From Escherichia phage vB_ESM-pEJ01, in the sequence record OP114734.1: a stretch of 64,000 bases of DNA; one strand, given 5' to 3'. Positions within the stretch are counted from its first letter, which is position 1. Every line of letters begins with the position of its first letter. Shown in pieces: positions 12,849 to 34,463 of this stretch. The position numbers were made by a program, and so were the translations under genes. The notes under the pieces are model-generated. The model did no database searches. It saw only the letters and a list, made by a program, of their open reading frames with translations, and was not told the DNA's origin.

Positions 12849-13366
12849 TGACAGAAACTAAACCTATGTTAAAATTTGTTGTTCCTGTAAAAAAATTAGA
12901 GATAAACGGGAAACATATCAAGATCCCAAAAATGGGGATTAAGCAACATCGATTATTAAAAGATGTTCGTAGCTGTGATGAAACATTAAAGATTCTTCTT
13001 GATTCAATCTGTCCTGGGTTAAACGCTGCCGAGTCTGAATTGGTTATGCTTAACCTTTGTGCGTTTAATGGTAAGTGTCTGGAAGAAAAAGATGGTCTTA
13101 AGCTGTCTGATGTGTATATTTGTACAGAGACTGAATTTACTTTAAATGGTAAAGTCTTTAAATTTAAAAATCCAATGTATACTTCTGACCCCATTATCGA
13201 TGACGCTGATTTCTTGAGTCATCATTATCACGATCCTAGCGTAGACTTCCATGATTTCCCAGCTTTTATTATGGATTGGGCTACAGGATTAAGAAAAACT
13301 ATTGCACTGGATACACCGGAAGGTACTATCTATGGTGGAATTAACATATTGGATCGCCTATCATGA
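12848..13366 (+). CDS. 28: Baseplate hub distal subunit gp28
   Basis: Size and synteny; start overlaps gp27 stop. Confidence 0.75.
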   Translation: MTETKPMLKFVVPVKKLEINGKHIKIPKMGIKQHRLLKDVRSCDETLKILLDSICPGLNAAESELVMLNLCAFNGKCLEEKDGLKLSDVYICTETEFTLNGKVFKFKNPMYTSDPIIDDADFLSHHYHDPSVDFHDFPAFIMDWATGLRKTIALDTPEGTIYGGINILDRLS

Positions 13367-15096
13367 ATGACGCATTAACATCATTTCGCGGGATGCGCAA
13401 GGAAGCGGAAGAAAACCCGATTGATAAACTTAACAAATTAGATAAACTTGATTCTATTGATAATTTGCAAGCCGCTACCGAATTGGTGGCGGAGACAGTA
13501 GAACAAAAATCTAATGAAGTTGTTGGTGCGGTAGAGGATAACACCGCAGCCAATGAATTGACGGCAGAGAATACCCAATCTACCGCTGGTAATACCCAAA
13601 AAACTTATGAAGAATTGCAAAAACTCAATAATTTCTCTTCTCAGATGAATGAGAAATTACGTGGTTTTGGTGTTATGATGGAACGTAGATTTGGTGTTGT
13701 CAGTAAAATGGCTAGCGGTATTGGTGCGATTGAAGAAGCACTGAAAAAACCGGAACAGCCGCAAACAATGCCATCACCTCAGCCAGTTTTGCCTACTGTA
13801 CCGGAACAGCCTAATAATGACAACTATCAAGGTCTTCCAAAGAAAAAACCAGATGTTGAGGAACGGAAGAAAAAGAACGCCACAGATAAGCGTAATGCCG
13901 ATTCTATGGAAAATCTTCTTAAAGTTGTTCGTGGAGGATTTAAAGAAACCATAGGTATCTCTAATAAGGTCTTAGGGATGTTATTTAAGATCACCTTGAC
14001 CGCTATGGCAGAAGCCGCAAAATGGGGCGCTATTTTGATGGGTATTGTTTTTGCCATCGACACCCTTATGATTCATTTCAGATATTGGAGTGATTTATTC
14101 GAAACAAAATTTGATGAATTTATGGATAAGGCCGGAGAATGGGCTGGACCAATTAGCGATATCTTAACCACGATTCGTCAAGTTCGAGATTATTGGTCTA
14201 AAGGCGAATATGGAGAATTAATTAAATCTCTTGTTATGGGTATTGGTGATGCATTCTATAAAACCTTTATCCAACTTGATCGAATTATCACTACTGGTAT
14301 TGCTAAAATTCTTCGCATGATCCCCGGTATGGGTGATTATGCCGATAAGTTAGAATACGGTGCTTTAAAGTCTGCTGTTGCTAAAGGCTATAAGCCAAAT
14401 GAAAGAGAACTTGAATTAATGGATAAGGTCGAGTCTGAACACGAAGAAGACAAATATGGAGAGCGCACAGGATGGACAGGAAAAGCCCGTGATATTGGCG
14501 AAGCTATTGGGGATTCTATTAAGGATAAAGTTAACGAAGGTCTTGTTAGTCTGGGCTGGAGAGATCAAAAGGATGTTGACGCAGAGAAACGACAAGAAGA
14601 ATTAAAACGCGGGGAATACAAGTCTGTTTCTGCTGAACAACGATCTGCTAGTCGTAAACTTAAAATTAAAAGTGAGGGAGCGATCAATAATATTAATGAA
14701 GTTATGGAGAATTTGAGCGGTGACTATGACAAAGAAAGAATGGGAGAGTTGAAAAAGGATATTGATGTTTACCGTGAGCAAGTTCAAGATCCTACATTAG
14801 TTGAAAGTGATCGTTCTCAGTTAGAGCGTCTTATTGAAAAATTTGATGAGATGTATGCTGATAAAACTAAGGGTGTGGTTCCAACTAATCCTGTTCCTGC
14901 AACTGAAACGGAAACAGCAAAACAAGCGGAACGTACTGAACAAATGCAGAAACAAGCTGCAATCCAGCAACAAACGACAAATCAGACCTCAAACGTAAAT
15001 AATACACAAATTGTAACAAACAATAGAACTATTAAACAGGGTGCACCAACAACTAGAATTGATGCTCCCGGTACAATTAATATGGGGAACTTTTAA
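13363..15096 (+). CDS. 29: Baseplate hub / tail length determinator gp29
   Basis: 577 aa, synteny, coiled-coil and Gln-rich C-terminus. Confidence 0.8.
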   Translation: MNDALTSFRGMRKEAEENPIDKLNKLDKLDSIDNLQAATELVAETVEQKSNEVVGAVEDNTAANELTAENTQSTAGNTQKTYEELQKLNNFSSQMNEKLRGFGVMMERRFGVVSKMASGIGAIEEALKKPEQPQTMPSPQPVLPTVPEQPNNDNYQGLPKKKPDVEERKKKNATDKRNADSMENLLKVVRGGFKETIGISNKVLGMLFKITLTAMAEAAKWGAILMGIVFAIDTLMIHFRYWSDLFETKFDEFMDKAGEWAGPISDILTTIRQVRDYWSKGEYGELIKSLVMGIGDAFYKTFIQLDRIITTGIAKILRMIPGMGDYADKLEYGALKSAVAKGYKPNERELELMDKVESEHEEDKYGERTGWTGKARDIGEAIGDSIKDKVNEGLVSLGWRDQKDVDAEKRQEELKRGEYKSVSAEQRSASRKLKIKSEGAINNINEVMENLSGDYDKERMGELKKDIDVYREQVQDPTLVESDRSQLERLIEKFDEMYADKTKGVVPTNPVPATETETAKQAERTEQMQKQAAIQQQTTNQTSNVNNTQIVTNNRTIKQGAPTTRIDAPGTINMGNF

Positions 15097-16154
15097 TGAA
15101 AATTAGTGTTATCAATGATGCCGTTGATAGCTTTAAAGCGGGGGTTAAAACCTCCGCTGGTTTTACCTCAAAAAATAAAGGGAAAACATTAACCGCTCAA
15201 TTCCCCGCTGAACGTGCTAGCGGTAATGATGCTAGCGGTTATTATATCAACGACTTATATAATAATGGTCTGTTATTCACTGCATACGATTATACATCTC
15301 GTACTACTGGTTCGTTGCGTGATTTCAGGAAAAAGAAAAATGTTGCTAGCGGTTTTGGTGGTAGCGTTAATATCGCTGGTTTTGATTTAAATTTGGGTGG
15401 GAGAAATGCTGCATTTGACCGAGAGGCAATTGCTAATATTCTTCTTCCTCGTAGTCAATCTGACGTTGACGCTGCTAGCCATAAGTTTAATGATGTTGGT
15501 GAATCTGTTATTTCTCGCGGTGGTGGTACTTTAGGCGGTGCTCTTTCTAATATGGCATCTACTGCCGTTTTTGGTGGTATCGAAAGTATTACTGGTGGAT
15601 ACCTTGCCGATCACGGTGAACAGATTTATAATACTGCGCGAAGCATGTATGCTGGTGCTGACGCACGAACTAAAAACTACGTATGGCATCTAACCCCACG
15701 TAGTATTGAAGACCTTCGCAATATTCTGATCATATACGAAACGTTTTTAGAGTTGTCTTATGGGTCTAGTGGTATTTCCAGCACCGCAAAAGAATTAAAA
15801 GCGGAAGTTGATGCGTGGTATAAAAATACACTATTGAGAAAATCCACCCCAGAGGAAGCGAAGAGAAATGATACTCTGTTTGAAGGGATCACCGATTTTC
15901 TATCAAACGCAATTACTGTATCTAACCCGACAATATGGATGATCTCTAACTTCGGCAAGCGTACATCGTTTGAAGGGCGTAGCGATGCATTTGGTCCCGC
16001 TCAGATCTCAAGTGTACGTCTGGACAAGTCGCCTGATGGTAAGTTTAATGGCCTTGCTATTTCTCCTAACTTGCCCAGTACATTTGTTCTGGAAGTATCA
16101 TTTAGAGAGATCTTGACACTTTCCCGTGGTACTATATTTGGGAGTGTGGTATAA
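15096..16154 (+). CDS. 48: Baseplate tail tube cap gp48
   Basis: Size and synteny (29-48-54), coupled starts. Confidence 0.8.
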   Translation: MKISVINDAVDSFKAGVKTSAGFTSKNKGKTLTAQFPAERASGNDASGYYINDLYNNGLLFTAYDYTSRTTGSLRDFRKKKNVASGFGGSVNIAGFDLNLGGRNAAFDREAIANILLPRSQSDVDAASHKFNDVGESVISRGGGTLGGALSNMASTAVFGGIESITGGYLADHGEQIYNTARSMYAGADARTKNYVWHLTPRSIEDLRNILIIYETFLELSYGSSGISSTAKELKAEVDAWYKNTLLRKSTPEEAKRNDTLFEGITDFLSNAITVSNPTIWMISNFGKRTSFEGRSDAFGPAQISSVRLDKSPDGKFNGLAISPNLPSTFVLEVSFREILTLSRGTIFGSVV

Positions 16155-17086
16155 TGTTTGATTTAAATGATTTTAACGAACAAGCCGCTAACCTTGACTT
16201 TCAGCGATCTAACTTATTCAGCGTGGCATTTGCCACCACTCCAAGTAATAAGACACAAGCGATCCTAGAAAGTATGGGCGGTGCGGTATATGATATTATA
16301 CCAAATGCATTAAATGACTATTTCGGGATTACTCGTGGTGATTATACTGACGCATTAACAAATCTTGCTGTACAGGGTGTTAGGCGTGCTGTTGATTCAT
16401 CCGGTGTCAAAAAGTATCTTTTAGGTGCAATGTCATCCCGCGTAGTTCAATCTCTTCTGGGGCAATTTGATGTTGGTACATATGCGCTTGACTGGTTCAA
16501 TATGGCATATAAGACAAGCGGTCTTCTGGTGTATGCTGTTAAGGTTCCAGAAAACAGATTGAATTATGAAATGGACCGTAACCACAATGCGCCAAACATT
16601 CGAATTACCGGACGTGATTTTGATCCGCTTGTATTGAGCTTTAGAATGGACTCCAGCGCATCAAACTATAGAGCAATGCAGGATTGGGTTAACTCAGTAG
16701 AAGACCCCGTTACAGGGCTTCGTGCGCTTCCTGTTGACGTTGAAGCAGATATTCAGGTTAACTTACATAACCGAATGGGAGTTCCTCACACGATCATGAT
16801 GTTTAATGGTTGTGTTCCTGTTGGTGTGAGTGCACCGGAATTAACCTATGAAAATAACAACGAAATTACAACATTCGATGTTACTTTTGCGTATAGGACT
16901 ATGCAAACTGGTGCTGTAGGAGAGCAAGCCGCTCGAGAATGGATTGAGGATAAGGCAATAAACGCAATAACAAACACTTTCGGCAATAATTTACTTGATA
17001 GTGGGTTATCTGCTGCTGGTAATGCTTTATCGCGTCTAAATGGCGTTGGTGGACGTGTGGTGAATACTGTCACTAACTGGTTCTGA
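16154..17086 (+). CDS. 54: Baseplate tail tube initiator gp54
   Basis: Size and synteny. Confidence 0.8.
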   Translation: MFDLNDFNEQAANLDFQRSNLFSVAFATTPSNKTQAILESMGGAVYDIIPNALNDYFGITRGDYTDALTNLAVQGVRRAVDSSGVKKYLLGAMSSRVVQSLLGQFDVGTYALDWFNMAYKTSGLLVYAVKVPENRLNYEMDRNHNAPNIRITGRDFDPLVLSFRMDSSASNYRAMQDWVNSVEDPVTGLRALPVDVEADIQVNLHNRMGVPHTIMMFNGCVPVGVSAPELTYENNNEITTFDVTFAYRTMQTGAVGEQAAREWIEDKAINAITNTFGNNLLDSGLSAAGNALSRLNGVGGRVVNTVTNWF

Positions 17087-17094
17087 TAAACGAA

Positions 17095-17120
17095 AGGCGG
17101 GGATAATCCCCGCCTTTTTA
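17095..17120. terminator. Bidirectional intrinsic terminator between gene 54 and the convergent lipoprotein gene
   Basis: Stem AGGCGGGGA-TAA-TCCCCGCCT followed by TTTTTATTTT. Confidence 0.65.
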
Positions 17121-17603
17121 TTTTGCTAAATCATTGCAATATTTTAGTGCCTTAGTTTGAAATTCTGAGCTGTTAAGTTCTTCATAACGGTCATAATCAC
17201 CGTTTAATGCTGCCTTTCTTGCTTCTTGCTCTATCTGCATGTCAGACATGATAATACAGCGATCCCGCGCTTTCATCTTCTCAAGTTGTATAGACTCTTC
17301 TTTCTGCTTGCGCAATTCTTCTTGACGCTTCTTTTCTTCTTGTGCTTTCTCTTCCCGCGCTTCTTTGATTGCCTCCTTGAACATCTGCGTTTGTGGTGCT
17401 AAACCAACTTTAACTCGATCTACGTCTCGACGTTCCATTTTAGAAATAAAGCATGATTCGATCTGATCATCACTTGCATATGCTGCTTTACATTCACGAA
17501 GCAAGAAAACCGGATCTGATTTAGCATTCATCATAGCTTCCATGTTGGCACAACCAGTAAGCATGAATGCAGCCGCAAGACCAATCAGTTTAATCATTTT
17601 CAT
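17118..17603 (-). CDS. Predicted lipoprotein (161 aa)
   Basis: Signal peptide with lipobox LTGC; charged coiled-coil-like middle. Confidence 0.6.
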   Translation of the reverse strand: MKMIKLIGLAAAFMLTGCANMEAMMNAKSDPVFLLRECKAAYASDDQIESCFISKMERRDVDRVKVGLAPQTQMFKEAIKEAREEKAQEEKKRQEELRKQKEESIQLEKMKARDRCIIMSDMQIEQEARKAALNGDYDRYEELNSSEFQTKALKYCNDLAK

Positions 17604-18424
17604 TTAGTCACCTCACCGAAAATTGTAAATTGTCTACGATTCTCATCGCCGAAAGATTCTACTACGTCGTTTACCTTGACGCAAGTCCCTCGCGGTAAAA
17701 TTACTTCACATTCGCAAGGGTTCCATGCAATTGACCCAACAACAAAACCTTTATGATCTTTTACGTCAATTACCCATGATACATTACAAGAATGTTGCAT
17801 CTTTCCGGTCATTGATTCATATCGATTCTCACAATAAAGGCTAGTGCTGTTTGATAGCCATCCTCCAAAGATGATCGGTGTCATGCTGGTAGATACAAAG
17901 TTTTTAAAGGTAAACTCCTTATCTTCAATGATACGCTCTATTGTCTGAATGTCAAGATGTTGACCTCGATAAAGAGTACCGTTTAACTTTTCGGTTTTAT
18001 CCATGACACAATCCATCAAATCAACAATCTCTGATATCTCATCGGTCATGTCTTCTTCCCCTAAGAGAGCACCATTTACCCATTCGTATTGTTCAGACAC
18101 ATAATCACAGATTGCATTATATTCTGCTGGGGTTATGTTGTTATGTTTGTAATGTTTGAATACATTATCTCCAAAGTCTTCGGAGTGTACTTCATACATC
18201 ACATTAATGATTTTCTTGACAAATCCATAATCTTGTGTCTCGCGCTCAAGGAAGCGGATAACCTTCACATAATCATCAAAGTTAATCTGATCGCTGATCA
18301 TCTCAGTGATCATGTAACCATTAATCCCCTCAATGTCATATGTTTCGATGTAATTATCCATACGTTCCATCATTGATTCGCGTGATTCTTCTGAAAGACG
18401 AAAATCCTGTAATTTCTTGAACAT
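17600..18424 (-). CDS. ADP-ribosyltransferase, Alt/Mod-like (274 aa)
   Basis: R-S-ExE triad: LYRGQ, STS, ECEVILPRG; paralogous to the Alt catalytic domain. Confidence 0.7.
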   Translation of the reverse strand: MFKKLQDFRLSEESRESMMERMDNYIETYDIEGINGYMITEMISDQINFDDYVKVIRFLERETQDYGFVKKIINVMYEVHSEDFGDNVFKHYKHNNITPAEYNAICDYVSEQYEWVNGALLGEEDMTDEISEIVDLMDCVMDKTEKLNGTLYRGQHLDIQTIERIIEDKEFTFKNFVSTSMTPIIFGGWLSNSTSLYCENRYESMTGKMQHSCNVSWVIDVKDHKGFVVGSIAWNPCECEVILPRGTCVKVNDVVESFGDENRRQFTIFGEVTK

Positions 18425-18502
18425 TTTAAACCTCCCATATAACAGAAAACGGGGCTAGTATAAAACTAGTCCCCGTTTGAGTCAACCATTATTTCTTAAA
18501 AA

Positions 18503-20554
18503 TTACATTTTAAATTTATCTGGCATTGCGTCTACAGATACCAGATCAGCGATAAGCTGACGTAGAGTTGCCTTATCTGCTTTCTTACGTTCGGTTTTAG
18601 CTTCGCTAATGAAGCTGGAGAAAGACAGGTCAGAAGCAGGTTTAATAACACCTTCACGGATGAATGCATCACCGTCCGCGATCATCTCGCCAGATTCTTG
18701 TAATGCTGCCAGTTCATTTTTGTTCATAATATGTGCCTCAATGTAATAAGTTTCTTGTGAATCAGTCGATGCCGTGGCACTAGTTACCGTATCAAAGGAT
18801 AACACAACACCGCGAGGAAGTAAAATCTCGCATTCTTTGTAAGCAAATGCTTTGTTACCTACTGGCAATACAGGGATGTTTTCCGCGCCAGCAATGGAGA
18901 AAGCAACATTAGCGCCACCTTCACCGCGAGAGCCAGCCATAGAATCAACACCAGCAACGGCACTAGCCACGTTTGCATTCCAGCCGCCAAAAATGTTAGG
19001 TGCAAGGGAAGTGCTCACATAGTTTTTAAAGTAAAACGCTTTTTGCTTACGTGCAGTTTCCCACATTTGCGACCGGAAGTCCATACCACGATACAGAATA
19101 GTACCCGGATCAAGTTTAACGCCATAGTTGGAGAAGGCATTATCCAGTGCATCGCACATCTTGACCAATTCTTCTGGATCTGCGATGCCTTCAAACTCTT
19201 CCAGCTTACGGTCGGTTAGGAAGTTGTTCATATTGATGTATGCTGCATCGGCATATTCGCTCAACACAAAACCTTCCGCGCCTGGCAGATCAAGATCAAT
19301 ATCTGCCATCATTTCACCCATGTTGCTAGCAATTGCTTCAAACATACCGGACGCAACATTACGTAGGGCATCGGTTTTAATCTGGGTGATATGACTACGC
19401 AGCATTTCAGCTTTTACATCTGCTGGCATAGACTGGTCTACTCGATCCATTGCCAGGGCGGTGATCTTGTTTTCGAATACTTCCTCGCTCATGATTTCTT
19501 TTAAGCGTTTGACCGAGGCTGCGATAACTTCCGCAGACAACGGATCATATTGATCCTGAACTTTTACCAGTTCGCTTACTGCGTATTTTGCATCGGCTTC
19601 GCTTTCAAAAATAGTACGCATGAAACCATAGCGAGTGATAATATCACTTGTCCAGTCATTCAGAGAACGGGCGGTTGAACGTTCTAAGGCTTGACGGTCA
19701 ATCAGAGTATTAAACTGTTTCTTAGGTTCGGCTTCGGTGATATCTTCTTCCGGTTTAAGATTAATTTTTTCTGGATGATTCACATAGTCGCTGTTATAGG
19801 TCGCTTGAGTTTTCAGCATTTCTTCTTTAGTCAAACGAGATTTAGCCGCTACGCGTTGTTCCGCTTCCGCGTTTCGTTCTTCTTCTGACACAAGACTAGC
19901 CGCATACGCTTCATCTTTAGTCAGAGATTCACCGGTAGCCTTAGATACCCAGCGATCACCTAAATCACTTTCTACTTTAGTGAACAGGGAATCATCAAGT
20001 TTAATCCCTTTAATCTTATCAATCGCCATACCGCGACGCTTGACAACAACTAAAGCGATCTTTTTGCTGGTCATTACTTCCTGCTGGAATACTTCAAACT
20101 TCGGTGTACGACGCACCAAACGCTCTATAACGCGCTTAACCAGTTCGGTCTTACCTTTCATGCGGGATACGTTAAAACGGAACATAACAGCGTCTAATTG
20201 CGCTTTACGGGCTGTTTCCATAACCACATCAAAAGCACTTGCCATAACTGCAATCGGGTTATCACCTAGACCATTTTTAAGCTGTACAATACGACCGCTT
20301 TTGTTCATTTCGCACAGTACAACATGTGCGGTCTTGTCACCCATACGAATGATTTTAGGTGTTTTGTTGGTGAAGTTACAAAGACGGACAATCACATCTT
20401 TATCGCGTGTCTGTACTGCAAAAAGCTGTTTAGGATTCTGCTTAGGCTTTAAGCACTGTACCGGGGCAATACTACCAAAGTTTTCTTCCTCTTCCGTCAA
20501 CAGCCATTTCTCGAAAGATTCAATCATTAGATCGTCGATTTCTAAGTTAAACAT
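18503..20554 (-). CDS. alt: Alt ADP-ribosyltransferase (virion-packaged RNAP modifier)
   Basis: 683 aa (T4 Alt 682 aa); C-terminal ART motifs LYRGMD, STSLAP, ECEILLPRG. Confidence 0.85.
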   Translation of the reverse strand: MFNLEIDDLMIESFEKWLLTEEEENFGSIAPVQCLKPKQNPKQLFAVQTRDKDVIVRLCNFTNKTPKIIRMGDKTAHVVLCEMNKSGRIVQLKNGLGDNPIAVMASAFDVVMETARKAQLDAVMFRFNVSRMKGKTELVKRVIERLVRRTPKFEVFQQEVMTSKKIALVVVKRRGMAIDKIKGIKLDDSLFTKVESDLGDRWVSKATGESLTKDEAYAASLVSEEERNAEAEQRVAAKSRLTKEEMLKTQATYNSDYVNHPEKINLKPEEDITEAEPKKQFNTLIDRQALERSTARSLNDWTSDIITRYGFMRTIFESEADAKYAVSELVKVQDQYDPLSAEVIAASVKRLKEIMSEEVFENKITALAMDRVDQSMPADVKAEMLRSHITQIKTDALRNVASGMFEAIASNMGEMMADIDLDLPGAEGFVLSEYADAAYINMNNFLTDRKLEEFEGIADPEELVKMCDALDNAFSNYGVKLDPGTILYRGMDFRSQMWETARKQKAFYFKNYVSTSLAPNIFGGWNANVASAVAGVDSMAGSRGEGGANVAFSIAGAENIPVLPVGNKAFAYKECEILLPRGVVLSFDTVTSATASTDSQETYYIEAHIMNKNELAALQESGEMIADGDAFIREGVIKPASDLSFSSFISEAKTERKKADKATLRQLIADLVSVDAMPDKFKM

Positions 20555-20596
20555 TTTATATCCTCTAGTTGATAACCTATAAACCTATATTTATGA

Positions 20597-20620
20597 AAAG
20601 GGGGCTTAACGCCCCCCTTT
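20597..20620. terminator. GC hairpin with flanking A/T runs (bidirectional terminator-like)
   Basis: AAAGGGGGC-TTAA-CGCCCCCCTTT. Confidence 0.5.
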
Positions 20621-20621
20621 A

Positions 20622-20834
20622 TTATAATGCACCATCGAGCAATTGCTCTAATGTGTATCCTGAATAGTCTTTTTCAATCAGGATATATTTTCCTACTCGT
20701 TTAATACAACCGCGCATTTCAACGTATTCTGCGTAGTTGATGGTGCGAGTTGTTCCATCTTCTAGCAAAGCAGTACCGATTTCGTTAATGCGGTCATAAG
20801 TTACGTCGGTAATGATGATTTCGATGTTAGCCAT
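20622..20834 (-). CDS. Hypothetical small early protein (70 aa)
   Basis: ATG at MANIEIIITD preceded by AGGAG; promoter 40 nt upstream. Confidence 0.55.
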   Translation of the reverse strand: MANIEIIITDVTYDRINEIGTALLEDGTTRTINYAEYVEMRGCIKRVGKYILIEKDYSGYTLEQLLDGAL

Positions 20835-20870
20835 TTGATACTCCTTAGTAGTTCGTTTCGGTATGTGTGC

Positions 20871-20900
20871 ATTATAGGGGATCACCGATCCCCCTGTCAA
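20871..20900 (-). promoter_or_regulatory. Early promoter (TTGACA-N18-TATAAT on - strand) with GGGGATC/GATCCCC palindrome in the spacer
   Basis: Plus strand reads ATTATAGGGGATCACCGATCCCCCTGTCAA. Confidence 0.6.
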
Positions 20901-20907
20901 CAACTTT

Positions 20908-21426
20908 TTAGTTATTTTTTAATTGTTCATCTTGCAATAATGCAATCACATGCTGGCGATGCTCTTCTGATTGAGGCACACCAAAAAAGTTTGTTTTGTA
21001 GAAATACTCTAATCGGTCTTCTCGTGTGCTCTCTTCCATCATGATCGCGGGTAGTCCGAGATTTCGGAAACGTCGCTTTTCTGCTGGCGTAAAATCACTG
21101 TAATACAACATAGAATCATCATTACCAGCAATGCTAAACTCATCCTTCATGAAAGAGAATATTGCGTTTAAACGCTGTTTACCGTCCACGATTTCGATCT
21201 CATAGCGAGAGCCATCATCAATCTTAGCCATTGCGATAGAGCCTACCGGAAAATCATTAATCATGTTTTCGATAAACATACGTTTGTTTTCGGTGTCCCA
21301 TACCAAAGGACGCTGATAATCTGGGTTCATGTTGATATAGCCATCTTCTAACCATGCCTCATAAACAGAGATGACAAAGTTTTTAGTATTGGTATAGTAA
21401 CGGCGTTTAGGCGTTAAACGGTTCAT
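20908..21426 (-). CDS. DUF262 / ParB-like nuclease-domain protein
   Basis: NPDYQRPLVWD and IVDGKQRLNAI (DGQQR-type motif); ATG at MNRL after AGGAG. Confidence 0.6.
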   Translation of the reverse strand: MNRLTPKRRYYTNTKNFVISVYEAWLEDGYINMNPDYQRPLVWDTENKRMFIENMINDFPVGSIAMAKIDDGSRYEIEIVDGKQRLNAIFSFMKDEFSIAGNDDSMLYYSDFTPAEKRRFRNLGLPAIMMEESTREDRLEYFYKTNFFGVPQSEEHRQHVIALLQDEQLKNN

Positions 21427-21427
21427 G

Positions 21428-21760
21428 TTATAGTCTCCTGAATGGATCATCACGTAAATCAATATCTTTTAAGAACTCATCCCATGAATGGCGGATATTA
21501 TTCTTAATTCTCCAGATAAGCGAAGGGATTGAACGCTCTCCCATCTGGAAGTATGGATCATATGATCCGTATGCCCAATATGCTACTACAATTCCGCAAT
21601 CAGTGCAATAGTATTCTATCTCGCTTGCTGGCGACCAAAGTCCATCAATATGATCACGGATCTTGCTTTCAATGTTATGACTATGGCAATCAGGGCAACG
21701 GATGCAATGACCTTGTTTGTCATAATTTGACGTTAGCGAATACTTAAACAATCTCATCAT
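21428..21760 (-). CDS. Zinc-ribbon protein (110 aa)
   Basis: CIRCPDC...CTDC (two CxxC pairs); start overlaps upstream stop. Confidence 0.5.
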   Translation of the reverse strand: MMRLFKYSLTSNYDKQGHCIRCPDCHSHNIESKIRDHIDGLWSPASEIEYYCTDCGIVVAYWAYGSYDPYFQMGERSIPSLIWRIKNNIRHSWDEFLKDIDLRDDPFRRL

Positions 21761-22473
21761 AGATCCTTATTGGCTTCAAATACTGCCTTTGCGAATCCTC
21801 GCGGGGTAAGTGACCTGATAGTCTTTGTTCTGGTTCCTTTCCCGCCTAGCTTAGAATGCTGTTTACTGTACCCTTTATTAATCGGCAACGGTTTCTTTTC
21901 TGGCATTATAAAGCCTTGTCCGGTCCATAAGCAAGTCTTTTTCGGGTACATATCACGGGCGGCAATATACTCAGGAAACGTAGGATGTATATCATCTTCC
22001 GGCAAATAACCGCCATATTCCCACGGGTGGAACATGTAATCAGGCTTACGCCACATGCTAGAGATAACGCTTACAGGATTCTCTATCATGTAGGGAACTC
22101 CTAGCCATTCACCCAAATAAGCGGTTATTTTAGCTGCCCGTACATCATGAACTTGAATCAACGGTCCTTGTTCTAGTTTCTTTCGTTCAAAGTGCGCAGC
22201 GCCACTAACAGCTAAATTGGTGCACGGTGGGAATGCAAAGATAATATCCGGTTTCCCCCATTCAAGGTCCATTGCTCTTTCCAGCCAGTTCAAATCAATC
22301 CAGGTGTTTACATAGGTAATGTTTTGATGTTCAAATCGGGTATTATATTTTTTGTATGTACCGTGGTCGCCATCGTCAGCATTAAAGCAGATCACCTTAT
22401 GACCTGCTTTAGCCCATTCTAACCCCATTATCCCCGATCCGTCAAAGTTGCAGAATATTAATTTTTGTTTCAC
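21757..22473 (-). CDS. C5-cytosine methyltransferase-like protein, truncated (238 aa)
   Basis: Motif I-like FCNFDGSG, motif IV-like FPPCTNLAVSGA (Pro-Cys), motif VI-like MIENP; no obvious target-recognition domain. Confidence 0.4.
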   Translation of the reverse strand: MKQKLIFCNFDGSGIMGLEWAKAGHKVICFNADDGDHGTYKKYNTRFEHQNITYVNTWIDLNWLERAMDLEWGKPDIIFAFPPCTNLAVSGAAHFERKKLEQGPLIQVHDVRAAKITAYLGEWLGVPYMIENPVSVISSMWRKPDYMFHPWEYGGYLPEDDIHPTFPEYIAARDMYPKKTCLWTGQGFIMPEKKPLPINKGYSKQHSKLGGKGTRTKTIRSLTPRGFAKAVFEANKDL

Positions 22474-33691: not shown

Positions 33692-34143
33692 TATTTCTCC
33701 TTCGGTTTGCACCGTTCCTCATTAAGTTCTTTTCGATAATAACACATGATCAACTTACTTTCAAGTGTATATCTCTTAATATCCGCAAGCCAGACTCTAA
33801 ATTTTTGGGAGTCCTCCCACGACATAGAAACTCTAGGTTTACCGTCTATTGTATCCACTTTCAGGTCAATGTCAACTTTTTCTATTGGTGCTGGTAGTGA
33901 AGGATGTAATTTCGGTTCCTGTGAATAATGGTCCAGTGTACACGAAGAAAGCGCAAATACAATAGGCACAGCGAATACATGGATTATGGCGGTCTGAAAA
34001 TTCTTATGTGCTTTCTTAAACATCCAGTGTATCGCAAAAATTGAAAACACCATCAGGATAATAATGCTTGCACCTATCCCCAGATAATCAACCAGATTAA
34101 AATTGCTTATCTGCTCTTGCGTAGGCAATATTTCTATGCTCAT
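33691..34143 (-). CDS. Membrane protein; candidate o-spanin lipoprotein if translated from internal Met (about 34023)
   Basis: Hydrophobic N-terminus, then MFKKAHKNFQTAIIHVFAVPIVFALSSC (lipobox L-S-S-C); adjacent to pseT where T4 has pseT.2/pseT.3. Confidence 0.4.
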   Translation of the reverse strand: MSIEILPTQEQISNFNLVDYLGIGASIIILMVFSIFAIHWMFKKAHKNFQTAIIHVFAVPIVFALSSCTLDHYSQEPKLHPSLPAPIEKVDIDLKVDTIDGKPRVSMSWEDSQKFRVWLADIKRYTLESKLIMCYYRKELNEERCKPKEK

Positions 34144-34463
34144 TTAGTAGCCTCCTTTAATTCTTCGGTAAACTCCTTAAATGAGTCATTAAGCTGTTTC
34201 TCTACCAACTTGGGTTTTTGTGCTACTACATAGCCTCGTGTAGCGTCTTTCATTGCTTTGTTTTGTTCTTCTGCAAACTTAGTTCTTATTCCGTACATCT
34301 CCTTTTGTAGTGAGTCTACGACCTTCATCTTCTCATCTGTCTTTTTCTTATACTCTGTAAATTCCTGATTCAGTCGATCTACCTCCTTTTTATTTTCCCA
34401 CCACATATTTCCACCTACCCCCAGCAACACAGAGATGATAACAATGTATACCAGCTTTGACAT
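34140..34463 (-). CDS. Candidate i-spanin (N-terminal TM helix plus coiled coil, 107 aa)
   Basis: ATG at MSKLVYIVIISVLLGVGG; charged helical periplasmic part; precedes lipoprotein ORF. Confidence 0.4.
   Translation of the reverse strand: MSKLVYIVIISVLLGVGGNMWWENKKEVDRLNQEFTEYKKKTDEKMKVVDSLQKEMYGIRTKFAEEQNKAMKDATRGYVVAQKPKLVEKQLNDSFKEFTEELKEATK

Follow-up and report, generated by a model that had tools for sequence, protein, structure and literature searches.

Why would a T4-like phage carry, directly downstream of alt, a second and much shorter Alt-type ADP-ribosyltransferase (ART) gene that is itself joined to a gene for a lipoprotein? The question is raised by positions 17,095–20,554 of a 64,000-nucleotide stretch of Escherichia phage vB_ESM-pEJ01 (OP114734.1; the whole stretch is called the window here), in which the three genes follow one another on the minus strand (Table 1). 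We lean towards an answer in which the locus holds two separately regulated ART units: alt, which would be made late and packaged, and the short ART, which would be made early, in the manner of the T4 Mod enzymes, together with an envelope lipoprotein.

The source is a Krischvirus, an RB49-type T4-like coliphage, and region 17000–20700 matches 58 phage records, among them RB49, Phi1, JSE and GEC-3S, over its full length at 98.8–99.3% identity. An earlier reading made from the letters alone (the sequence-only reading) had described two Alt-family ARTs in tandem with a coupled lipoprotein gene, and all three open reading frames (ORFs) are indeed where it placed them; the lipoprotein ATG overlaps the stop codon of the short ART in a 4-nt ATGA (17600–17603). 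Genes 29, 48 and 54 (baseplate and tail tube; 13363–17086, plus strand) are convergent with this group.

The argument for separate regulation begins with what stands ahead of each ART gene. Directly before the alt promoter, an intrinsic-terminator hairpin closes the upstream early ORF, and it is followed by the sequence cATAAATA. ATAAATA fits the core of the T4 and RB49 late promoters (PMC1524935), so cATAAATA would be expected to act as a late promoter for alt; the window has 11 copies of the motif where 22.9 would be expected, and most of them lie a short way ahead of late structural genes, on the coding strand of those genes. A motif search of the window found no ATAAATA before the 274-amino-acid gene. 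The spacer between the two ART genes has instead the make-up of a promoter-early stem-loop (PeSL) cassette, as described for RB49 and phi1 by Arbiol et al. 2010 (PMC2839356). That definition comprises sigma-70-type −35 and −10 boxes, an AT-rich upstream region that includes the stop codon of the preceding gene, a GC-rich stem-loop that lies between the boxes or overlaps them, a Shine–Dalgarno sequence and a start codon; the PeSLs tested worked both as strong sigma-70-type promoters and as effective terminators, and modular shuffling is mediated by PeSLs (PMC2839356). At the level of motifs the alt-to-ART spacer has each of these parts in turn: a TAA within an AT-rich stretch, the two boxes, a stem-loop over the −10 box, GGGAGG and, downstream of it, the ATG of the 274-amino-acid gene. 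The underlying promoter pattern, GTTGAC-N16-19-TATAMT, is matched 13 times in the window, every time on the minus (early) strand, where 0.09 matches would be expected; many of the 13 copies carry a GGGG...CCCC hairpin in the spacer.

The same layout recurs in an uncultured T4-like contig (L010), with terminator and ATAAATA, alt, PeSL, short ART, overlapping lipoprotein gene and convergent gp54 in the same order. Its alt is preceded by a hairpin and by AATAAATA, in the same place as in the window; its short ART is preceded by TTGACA-17-TATACT with a stem-loop that has base changes on both arms; and its short ART and lipoprotein genes again overlap, start on stop. Protein identity between contig and window is 46% for Alt, 44% for the whole short ART (29% in the N-terminal part and 53% in the catalytic part), 38% for the lipoprotein and 81% for gp54 and gp48. 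Because both the layout and the regulatory elements are conserved in this relative, the reading of a late alt and an early short ART is strengthened.

Judged by its sequence, the 274-amino-acid protein is a real and functional-looking member of the Alt family. A helical N-terminal extension (residues 1–97) precedes an R-S-ExE catalytic domain (98–274), and PF03496 (ADPrib_exo_Tox) is recognized with E = 4.3e-16 and 59.3 bits against a cut-off of 23.4 bits, well outside what chance would give. The complete triad that the sequence-only reading had seen is present and intact: R153 in LYRGQ (codon 17968–17966), S178–S180 in STS (17893–17885), and E238 (17713–17711) and E240 (17707–17705) in ECEVILPRG. 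R153, S178-T-S180 and E238-x-E240 are invariant in eight family and relative sequences, down to 24–28% identity. Profile alignment with hhalign against 75 full-length Alt-like proteins equates ART residues 98–274 with Alt residues 424–610 (probability 100%, E = 1.2e-42), and BLASTP aligns the protein with residues 413–593 of T4 Alt (31% identity, E = 1e-23) and with residues 487–593 of the resident Alt (37%, E = 1e-16). With T4 Alt it shares a homologous catalytic domain, the R, STS and ExE motifs, an FGGW insertion after STS, and a locus between gene 54 and gene 30.

From an alignment of eight sequences, AlphaFold gives a confident model (predicted local distance difference test (pLDDT) score 80, predicted template modelling score 0.77; poor only in the loop 187–210 after STS and in the first four residues) with the mixed alpha/beta fold of C3-like ARTs. 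Foldseek pairs it with Vis, Certhrax, C3 (C3bot), iota-Ia and CDTa at E values of 1e-10 to 1e-8 and probability 1.00. The likeness to these R-S-E clade toxins of PF03496 lies in the fold and the catalytic motifs; identity is 13–19%, the phage enzyme has ExE where C3 has QxE, and it carries about 65 extra N-terminal residues. A sequence search of solved structures returned matches to Tre1 only, at a non-significant E value of 0.07. Within the ADP-ribosylating turn-turn (ARTT) motif, ExE is the arginine-specific form, as opposed to QxE, and the short ART is most likely an arginine-specific mono-ART.

The 683-amino-acid neighbour is a full-length T4 Alt orthologue, matched end to end by BLASTP (27% identity, E = 3e-61) and by phrog_802 (E = 1e-179), with PF03496 over residues 425–610 (E = 1.9e-9, 37.6 bits) and with homology to Alt in the C-terminal tail as well as in the first ~420 residues. 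PF26846 (Tevenvirinae_ADPRT), which covers the non-catalytic part of Alt, stands in the precomputed Pfam list of the L010 Alt (L010 3930–5936) and was not reported for the window Alt in a Pfam scan of the window proteins. The short ART has neither of the two flanking regions. It is without the N-terminal ~420 residues (about 1–412 in T4 Alt) and without the C-terminal tail of ~75–90 residues (~90 in T4 Alt) ending in MPxKF, a tail kept by Alt and by other truncated Alt-like proteins such as P0007 and P0008. Taken together with a promoter of early type, in contrast to the late-type motif of alt, the missing regions indicate that the short ART is probably not packaged; and a stand-alone Alt catalytic domain in a PeSL-driven operon is most likely made de novo and early.

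What replaces the Alt scaffold is small. Residues 1–97 show no sequence similarity to the Alt family (hhalign probability 0.3%), and the isolated N terminus matches only its own family, phrog_15144. The surplus over a C3-type fold comes to about 65 residues in three helices (12–28, 36–41 and 49–63). The claim of a distinct N-terminal domain thus stands at the level of sequence; as a domain it shrinks to a helical extension of ~65–95 residues, part of which may be similar in structure to the helices ahead of the Alt catalytic core. We also considered the N terminus as a diverged middle region of Alt, given that the PHROG alignment ran through it and that some hidden Markov model (HMM) matches reached profile positions 3–28. 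The own-family-only matches and the hhalign value led us to reject this at the sequence level, and a structural similarity may exist all the same. When 1.8 billion cluster representatives were searched exhaustively with an HMM, the short architecture turned up in a handful of clusters only (P0005, P0006, P0050 and one fragment). Most other strong matches to the short-ART profile were Alt-like proteins of 600–710 amino acids, and some were ART domains inside giant multidomain proteins. Among the best non-family matches are four giants of 1700–3250 amino acids (P0051, P0056, P0059 and P0086) with 5–8 matched stretches each, which we read as polyvalent-type proteins that contain repeated or embedded Alt-type ART domains.

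With T4 Alt, ModA and ModB, the short ART and the ModB-like protein of RB49 as queries, tblastn searches of the window and the rest of RB49 found three ART genes and no more: alt, its short Alt-like companion and, elsewhere in the genome, a single modB-like gene in the canonical srd-56 position. Where T4 has Alt, ModA and ModB, this phage has Alt, a short Alt and one Mod, an inventory that makes it a reasonable hypothesis that an Alt-type domain does a Mod-type early job. The likeness to ModA and ModB would lie in the proposed working mode, that of a small, free-standing R-S-ExE ART made early; the difference lies in sequence family (phrog_832 for the Mod enzymes) and in the separate modB-like gene that the phage has.

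The explanation that we propose runs as follows. Behind its terminator and cATAAATA, alt would, by analogy with T4, be expressed late, and its product would enter the head and be injected along with the DNA. The PeSL, as stem-loop terminator and strong sigma-70-type promoter in one, would drive the two-gene ART–lipoprotein operon. The short ART, which has lost the first ~420 residues of Alt as well as its tail and has its own short helical N-terminal extension, would be synthesized de novo within minutes of the start of infection and would use NAD+ to ADP-ribosylate host proteins, serving as a Mod-like early enzyme built on an Alt-type catalytic domain in a phage with one Mod-family gene to the two of T4. 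The lipoprotein would be an exported, disulfide-containing helical envelope factor, co-expressed with the ART rather than acting as its partner. The analysis shows what the genes are, the fold and conserved catalytic residues of the short ART, the purifying selection on it, and the regulatory motifs with their conservation; the early timing, the absence of packaging and the arginine specificity of the short ART are what we infer.

The lipoprotein itself bears out the sequence-only description of a coupled lipoprotein with a charged coiled coil, in that a signal peptide and lipobox and a long, highly charged helix accompany the overlapping start codon. Its N terminus, MKMIKLIGLAAAFMLTG-C18-A, has a positively charged region, a hydrophobic core and a lipobox (MKMIK-LIGLAAAFM-LTG-C18; the LTG-C18 lipobox cysteine is codon 17552–17550, and the pattern used was [LVI][ASTVI][GAS]C), and signal peptide and lipobox are invariant in ten homologues, including alleles that are only ~30% identical in the mature part. 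By the E. coli +2 rule, the alanine at +2 suggests Lol-dependent sorting to the outer membrane, where the protein is probably anchored. Four cysteines (C38, C51, C116 and C156) never vary, in agreement with a disulfide-bonded protein of the periplasm, and the model is all-helical (pLDDT 86), with a charged helix of ~60 residues at 72–133. The family, phrog_16112, has no annotated function; there was no match in Pfam or NCBIfam, and no fold match in the PDB better than E = 1.3. Two candidate identities were rejected: T4 alt.-3, to which it has no similarity, and an outer-membrane or unimolecular spanin (o- or u-spanin), there being no inner-membrane spanin (i-spanin) neighbour and no C-terminal transmembrane helix. 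The window also has separate homologues of T4 PseT.2 and PseT.3 at ~33706–34391, a further reason not to take the lipoprotein for a spanin. The strict lipobox pattern found no other lipoprotein but missed the PseT.2 homologue, and is therefore too strict for a census.

At the same site, six Krischvirus records carry an alternative lipoprotein allele of ~29% identity in which the four cysteines are kept. Phage E26 (L009) has a short ART that is 100% identical to that of the window and a mature lipoprotein that is only ~29% identical: DNA identity falls from 97–100% to 30–50% exactly between ~17570, after about 11 signal-peptide codons, and ~17120, at the stop codon, and then returns to 97–100%. 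The corresponding stretch of E26 (L009 2350–2831) has sharp mosaic boundaries: alt, PeSL, short ART, terminator and gene 54 around it are 97–100% identical to the window, and the signal-peptide codons and the terminator are the conserved flanks. In phages that hardly differ elsewhere, the mature part of the lipoprotein is an exchangeable allele. Among the common alleles there are no synonymous differences and 1–3 nonsynonymous ones, although these are small numbers. This pattern points to an envelope-interaction factor under diversifying pressure. As to its role, superinfection exclusion or receptor masking is our guess, for which T5 Llp and Cor serve as analogues.

Two other accounts of the short ART concern what kind of gene it is. 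That the 274-amino-acid ORF is a decaying, non-functional leftover of a tandem alt duplication would be in keeping with T4, where the remnants alt.-1 and alt.-2 sit at the same locus, and with Nolan et al. (PMC1524935), who group ORF183c with those remnants. Between Krischvirus genomes, however, the gene shows 12–20 synonymous against 0–2 nonsynonymous differences (dN/dS 0–0.03, and no nonsynonymous change in three of the six pairwise comparisons), which is lower than for Alt (0.09–0.11) and similar to gp54; and in an alignment of six family members, 42–83% identical, 70 columns do not vary, those of the full triad among them. The short ART is under strong purifying selection, and these two results rule out decay of the T4 kind. 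Its own promoter and strong Shine–Dalgarno sequence, and its retention in a relative at 44% identity, weigh the same way, so that we regard the remnant account as effectively refuted and give it next to no credence. Nor is the gene a recent copy of its neighbour: among 73 Alt relatives of the short catalytic domain the resident Alt ranks 35th, below T4 Alt, so the short ART is an old paralogue or an import, and a recent local duplication of alt was rejected as its origin. Synonymous divergence (dS) among Krischvirus genomes is 0.08–0.14 for the short ART and 0.03 for the adjacent alt, roughly a threefold contrast that suggests different recombination histories for the genes on either side of the PeSL. 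Relocation of an ordinary ModA/ModB orthologue to a site beside alt would agree with the size class and with the likely early expression; yet BLASTP against T4 ModA and ModB gave non-significant E values of 0.4–1.2, phrog_832 does not match the short ART while it matches T4 ModA, T4 ModB and RB49p014 at E values of 1e-20 to 1e-41, and the RB49 modB-like gene stays where Mod genes are found. At the level of sequence family this account is refuted and, to our minds, scarcely worth entertaining. The alignment to Alt, ModA and ModB that the sequence-only reading had proposed as its check accordingly places the protein in the Alt family, without Mod homology and with its catalytic residues unsubstituted.

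The two remaining accounts concern where the protein goes and what it works with. It might, like Alt, be packaged in the virion and injected, as a second ART of that kind; read-through from the late promoter of alt would then give late expression, and the N terminus would direct the protein to the prohead. That N terminus, MFKKLQDFRLSE, contains an L-x-E tripeptide and is loosely like the capsid-targeting leader of T4 internal proteins. The gene adjoins alt and late structural genes, there is a weak match to phrog_595 (head maturation protease, E = 3e-5), and surveys report that many phage Alt/VIP2 ARTs are delivered from the head (PMC9503650). Set against this are the early-type promoter and missing late motif, the loss of Alt regions of which even other truncated Alt-like proteins keep the tail, and the position of the tripeptide, which is out of register across the family. 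A comparison of all ORF N termini in the window and the rest of RB49 found no shared leader: the motif was present only in the query and in the unrelated gp61.1, and the best pair score was at noise level, in a search for likeness to this N terminus or to the T4 leader that had no positive control. Packaging of the short ART is in our estimation improbable, if a good deal less so than its being a functional pair with the lipoprotein, such as toxin and immunity protein or an exported effector system. For such a pair one could cite the ATGA overlap as translational coupling, the retention of both genes in L010–L012, and the identity of the closest solved sequence relative, Tre1, an effector of a type VI secretion system that has an immunity protein (the match being the non-significant one given above). 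Four-nucleotide overlaps, however, are routine in T4-type early operons, and the ART, which lacks a signal peptide, presumably stays in the cytoplasm, away from the exported lipoprotein. In E26, ART and lipoprotein do not co-evolve, which argues against a specific functional pair. We put very little faith in a pairing; the lipoprotein probably acts in the cell envelope and shares only its expression with the ART.

Several points weigh against our preferred explanation of a late, packaged alt and an early short ART with its lipoprotein. Timing is read from sequence motifs only, and read-through of the PeSL hairpin from a late alt transcript could give late expression of the short ART and, with it, conceivably packaging. 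Its role as a stand-in for ModA is drawn by analogy, and sequence by itself predicts no RNA polymerase alpha target. Foldseek matches of the ART model to Alt-like and 'split Alt' models in BFVD have query-normalized TM-scores (template modelling scores) of 0.65–0.68 over ~300 columns, compared with ~0.5 for C3-type structures; some of the N-terminal helices may thus be diverged Alt scaffold, and the argument for a new targeting module is weakened. In the searchable literature we found nothing relevant on the function of ORF183c or on Krischvirus virion proteomics. A target different from that of Alt is plausible. We offer more tentatively, as a rather unlikely extension, a scheme in which the private N-terminal helices of an early takeover ART would aim its Alt-type domain at a non-Alt target and fill the ModA niche, the lipoprotein would be an exclusion or receptor-masking factor caught in an arms race, and the two would form a conserved 'takeover plus exclusion' cassette moved by PeSL recombination.

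The gene has a published history, and the sequence-only reading overstated its novelty in treating the arrangement as unusual and a second Alt-like enzyme as notable by comparison with T4. The short ART has been annotated since the RB49 genome: in RefSeq, alt is RB49p184, RB49p183 is 'ADP-ribosyltransferase; similar to C-terminal part of T4 Alt protein' and RB49p182 is 'hypothetical protein' (its counterpart in phage W115 is a 'putative lipoprotein'). By position, neighbours and length, RB49 ORF183c/RB49p183 (NP_891754.1; PHROG 15144; BFVD A0A482MMH4) is the same gene; it has no nonsynonymous difference from the window ART, and at least one Krischvirus record, that of E26, encodes an identical protein. 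Nolan et al. 2006 (PMC1524935) listed ORF183c, 44RR ORF188c and T4 alt.-1/alt.-2 as paralogous alt duplications. Extra alt copies are indeed common at this locus in T4-like phages, with two full-length tandem genes in JS98, a full-length and a partial copy in 44RR (ORF187c/188c) and the remnants alt.-1/alt.-2 in T4; a 'split RNA polymerase ADP-ribosylase' occurs in the Acinetobacter phages ZZ1 and Henu6, known here only as structure-search matches. Duplication, splitting and truncation of alt are therefore recurrent, at the same locus in the coliphage and Aeromonas phage cases. The Krischvirus form differs from the other extra copies as a minimal catalytic-domain version with its own N-terminal helices, an early promoter and a coupled lipoprotein gene.

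To this we add the split between late and early promoters, the strong purifying selection, the non-recent origin, the maintenance of the module in a distant relative and the exchangeable lipoprotein allele. T4 Alt, ModA and ModB are the classic model of how a phage reprograms host transcription and translation. Interest in the T4 ARTs has been revived by RNAylation by ModB (PMC10468400). Krischvirus would offer a natural variant of that toolkit, in which Alt is injected, a free-standing Alt-type catalytic domain is made early and there is a single Mod, and the targets of the 274-amino-acid enzyme would show how the choice of target is encoded outside the conserved catalytic core. Of the two genes in the operon, the lipoprotein with its exchangeable allele is the more interesting loose end.

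Table 1. Coordinates of genes and signals at the alt locus and of related features elsewhere in the window
Feature	Position	Strand	Basis or detail
alt, 683 amino acids	18503–20554	minus	ORF list
Short Alt-family ART, 274 amino acids (RB49 ORF183c/RB49p183)	17600–18424	minus	ORF list
Lipoprotein gene, 161 amino acids (RB49p182)	17118–17603	minus	ORF list
Intrinsic-terminator hairpin GGGGGGC-GUUAA-GCCCCC, then UUUU	20597–20621	minus	terminator scan; fold −17.7 kcal/mol, z −3.7
Late-promoter-like cATAAATA	20588–20595	minus	34 nt upstream of alt ATG
PeSL cassette, early promoter GTTGACT-17-TATACT	18457–18486	minus	promoter scan
PeSL stem-loop over −10 box, then UUUUC	18447–18478	minus	fold −20 kcal/mol, z −3.9
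Strong bidirectional terminator, 12-bp stem, common to convergent gene 54 and ART–lipoprotein operon	17092–17118	both	terminator scan; −19.6 kcal/mol, z −5.4
GTTGAC-N16-19-TATAMT sites	4475, 11055, 18457, 20871, 23006, 26285, 27689, 28084, 33527, 39635, 44965, 49004, 49560	minus	motif search
PseT.2 (T4 o-spanin) homologue	~33706–33909	minus	E 1.7e-19
PseT.3 (T4 i-spanin) homologue	~34143–34391	minus	E 4.7e-10

Two neighbouring genes deserve mention. The mechanically called 93-amino-acid ORF with a TTG start at 20622–20903 (minus strand) is really a 70-amino-acid gene with an ATG start (ATG at 20834; RB49p185, phrog_10679); it has its own perfect-consensus PeSL promoter (20871–20901) and its own terminator, and is thus a single-gene early cassette. 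Beyond it, a 184-amino-acid protein (20908–21462, minus strand) consists of a GmrSD_N/DUF262 domain alone (PF03235, E = 4e-20), encoded two genes upstream of a 238-amino-acid ORF (21757–22473, minus strand) that the RB49 annotation gives as a DNA methyltransferase. Since GmrSD_N is the N-terminal domain of a type IV restriction enzyme, a stand-alone copy in a phage could be a decoy or an anti-defence factor.

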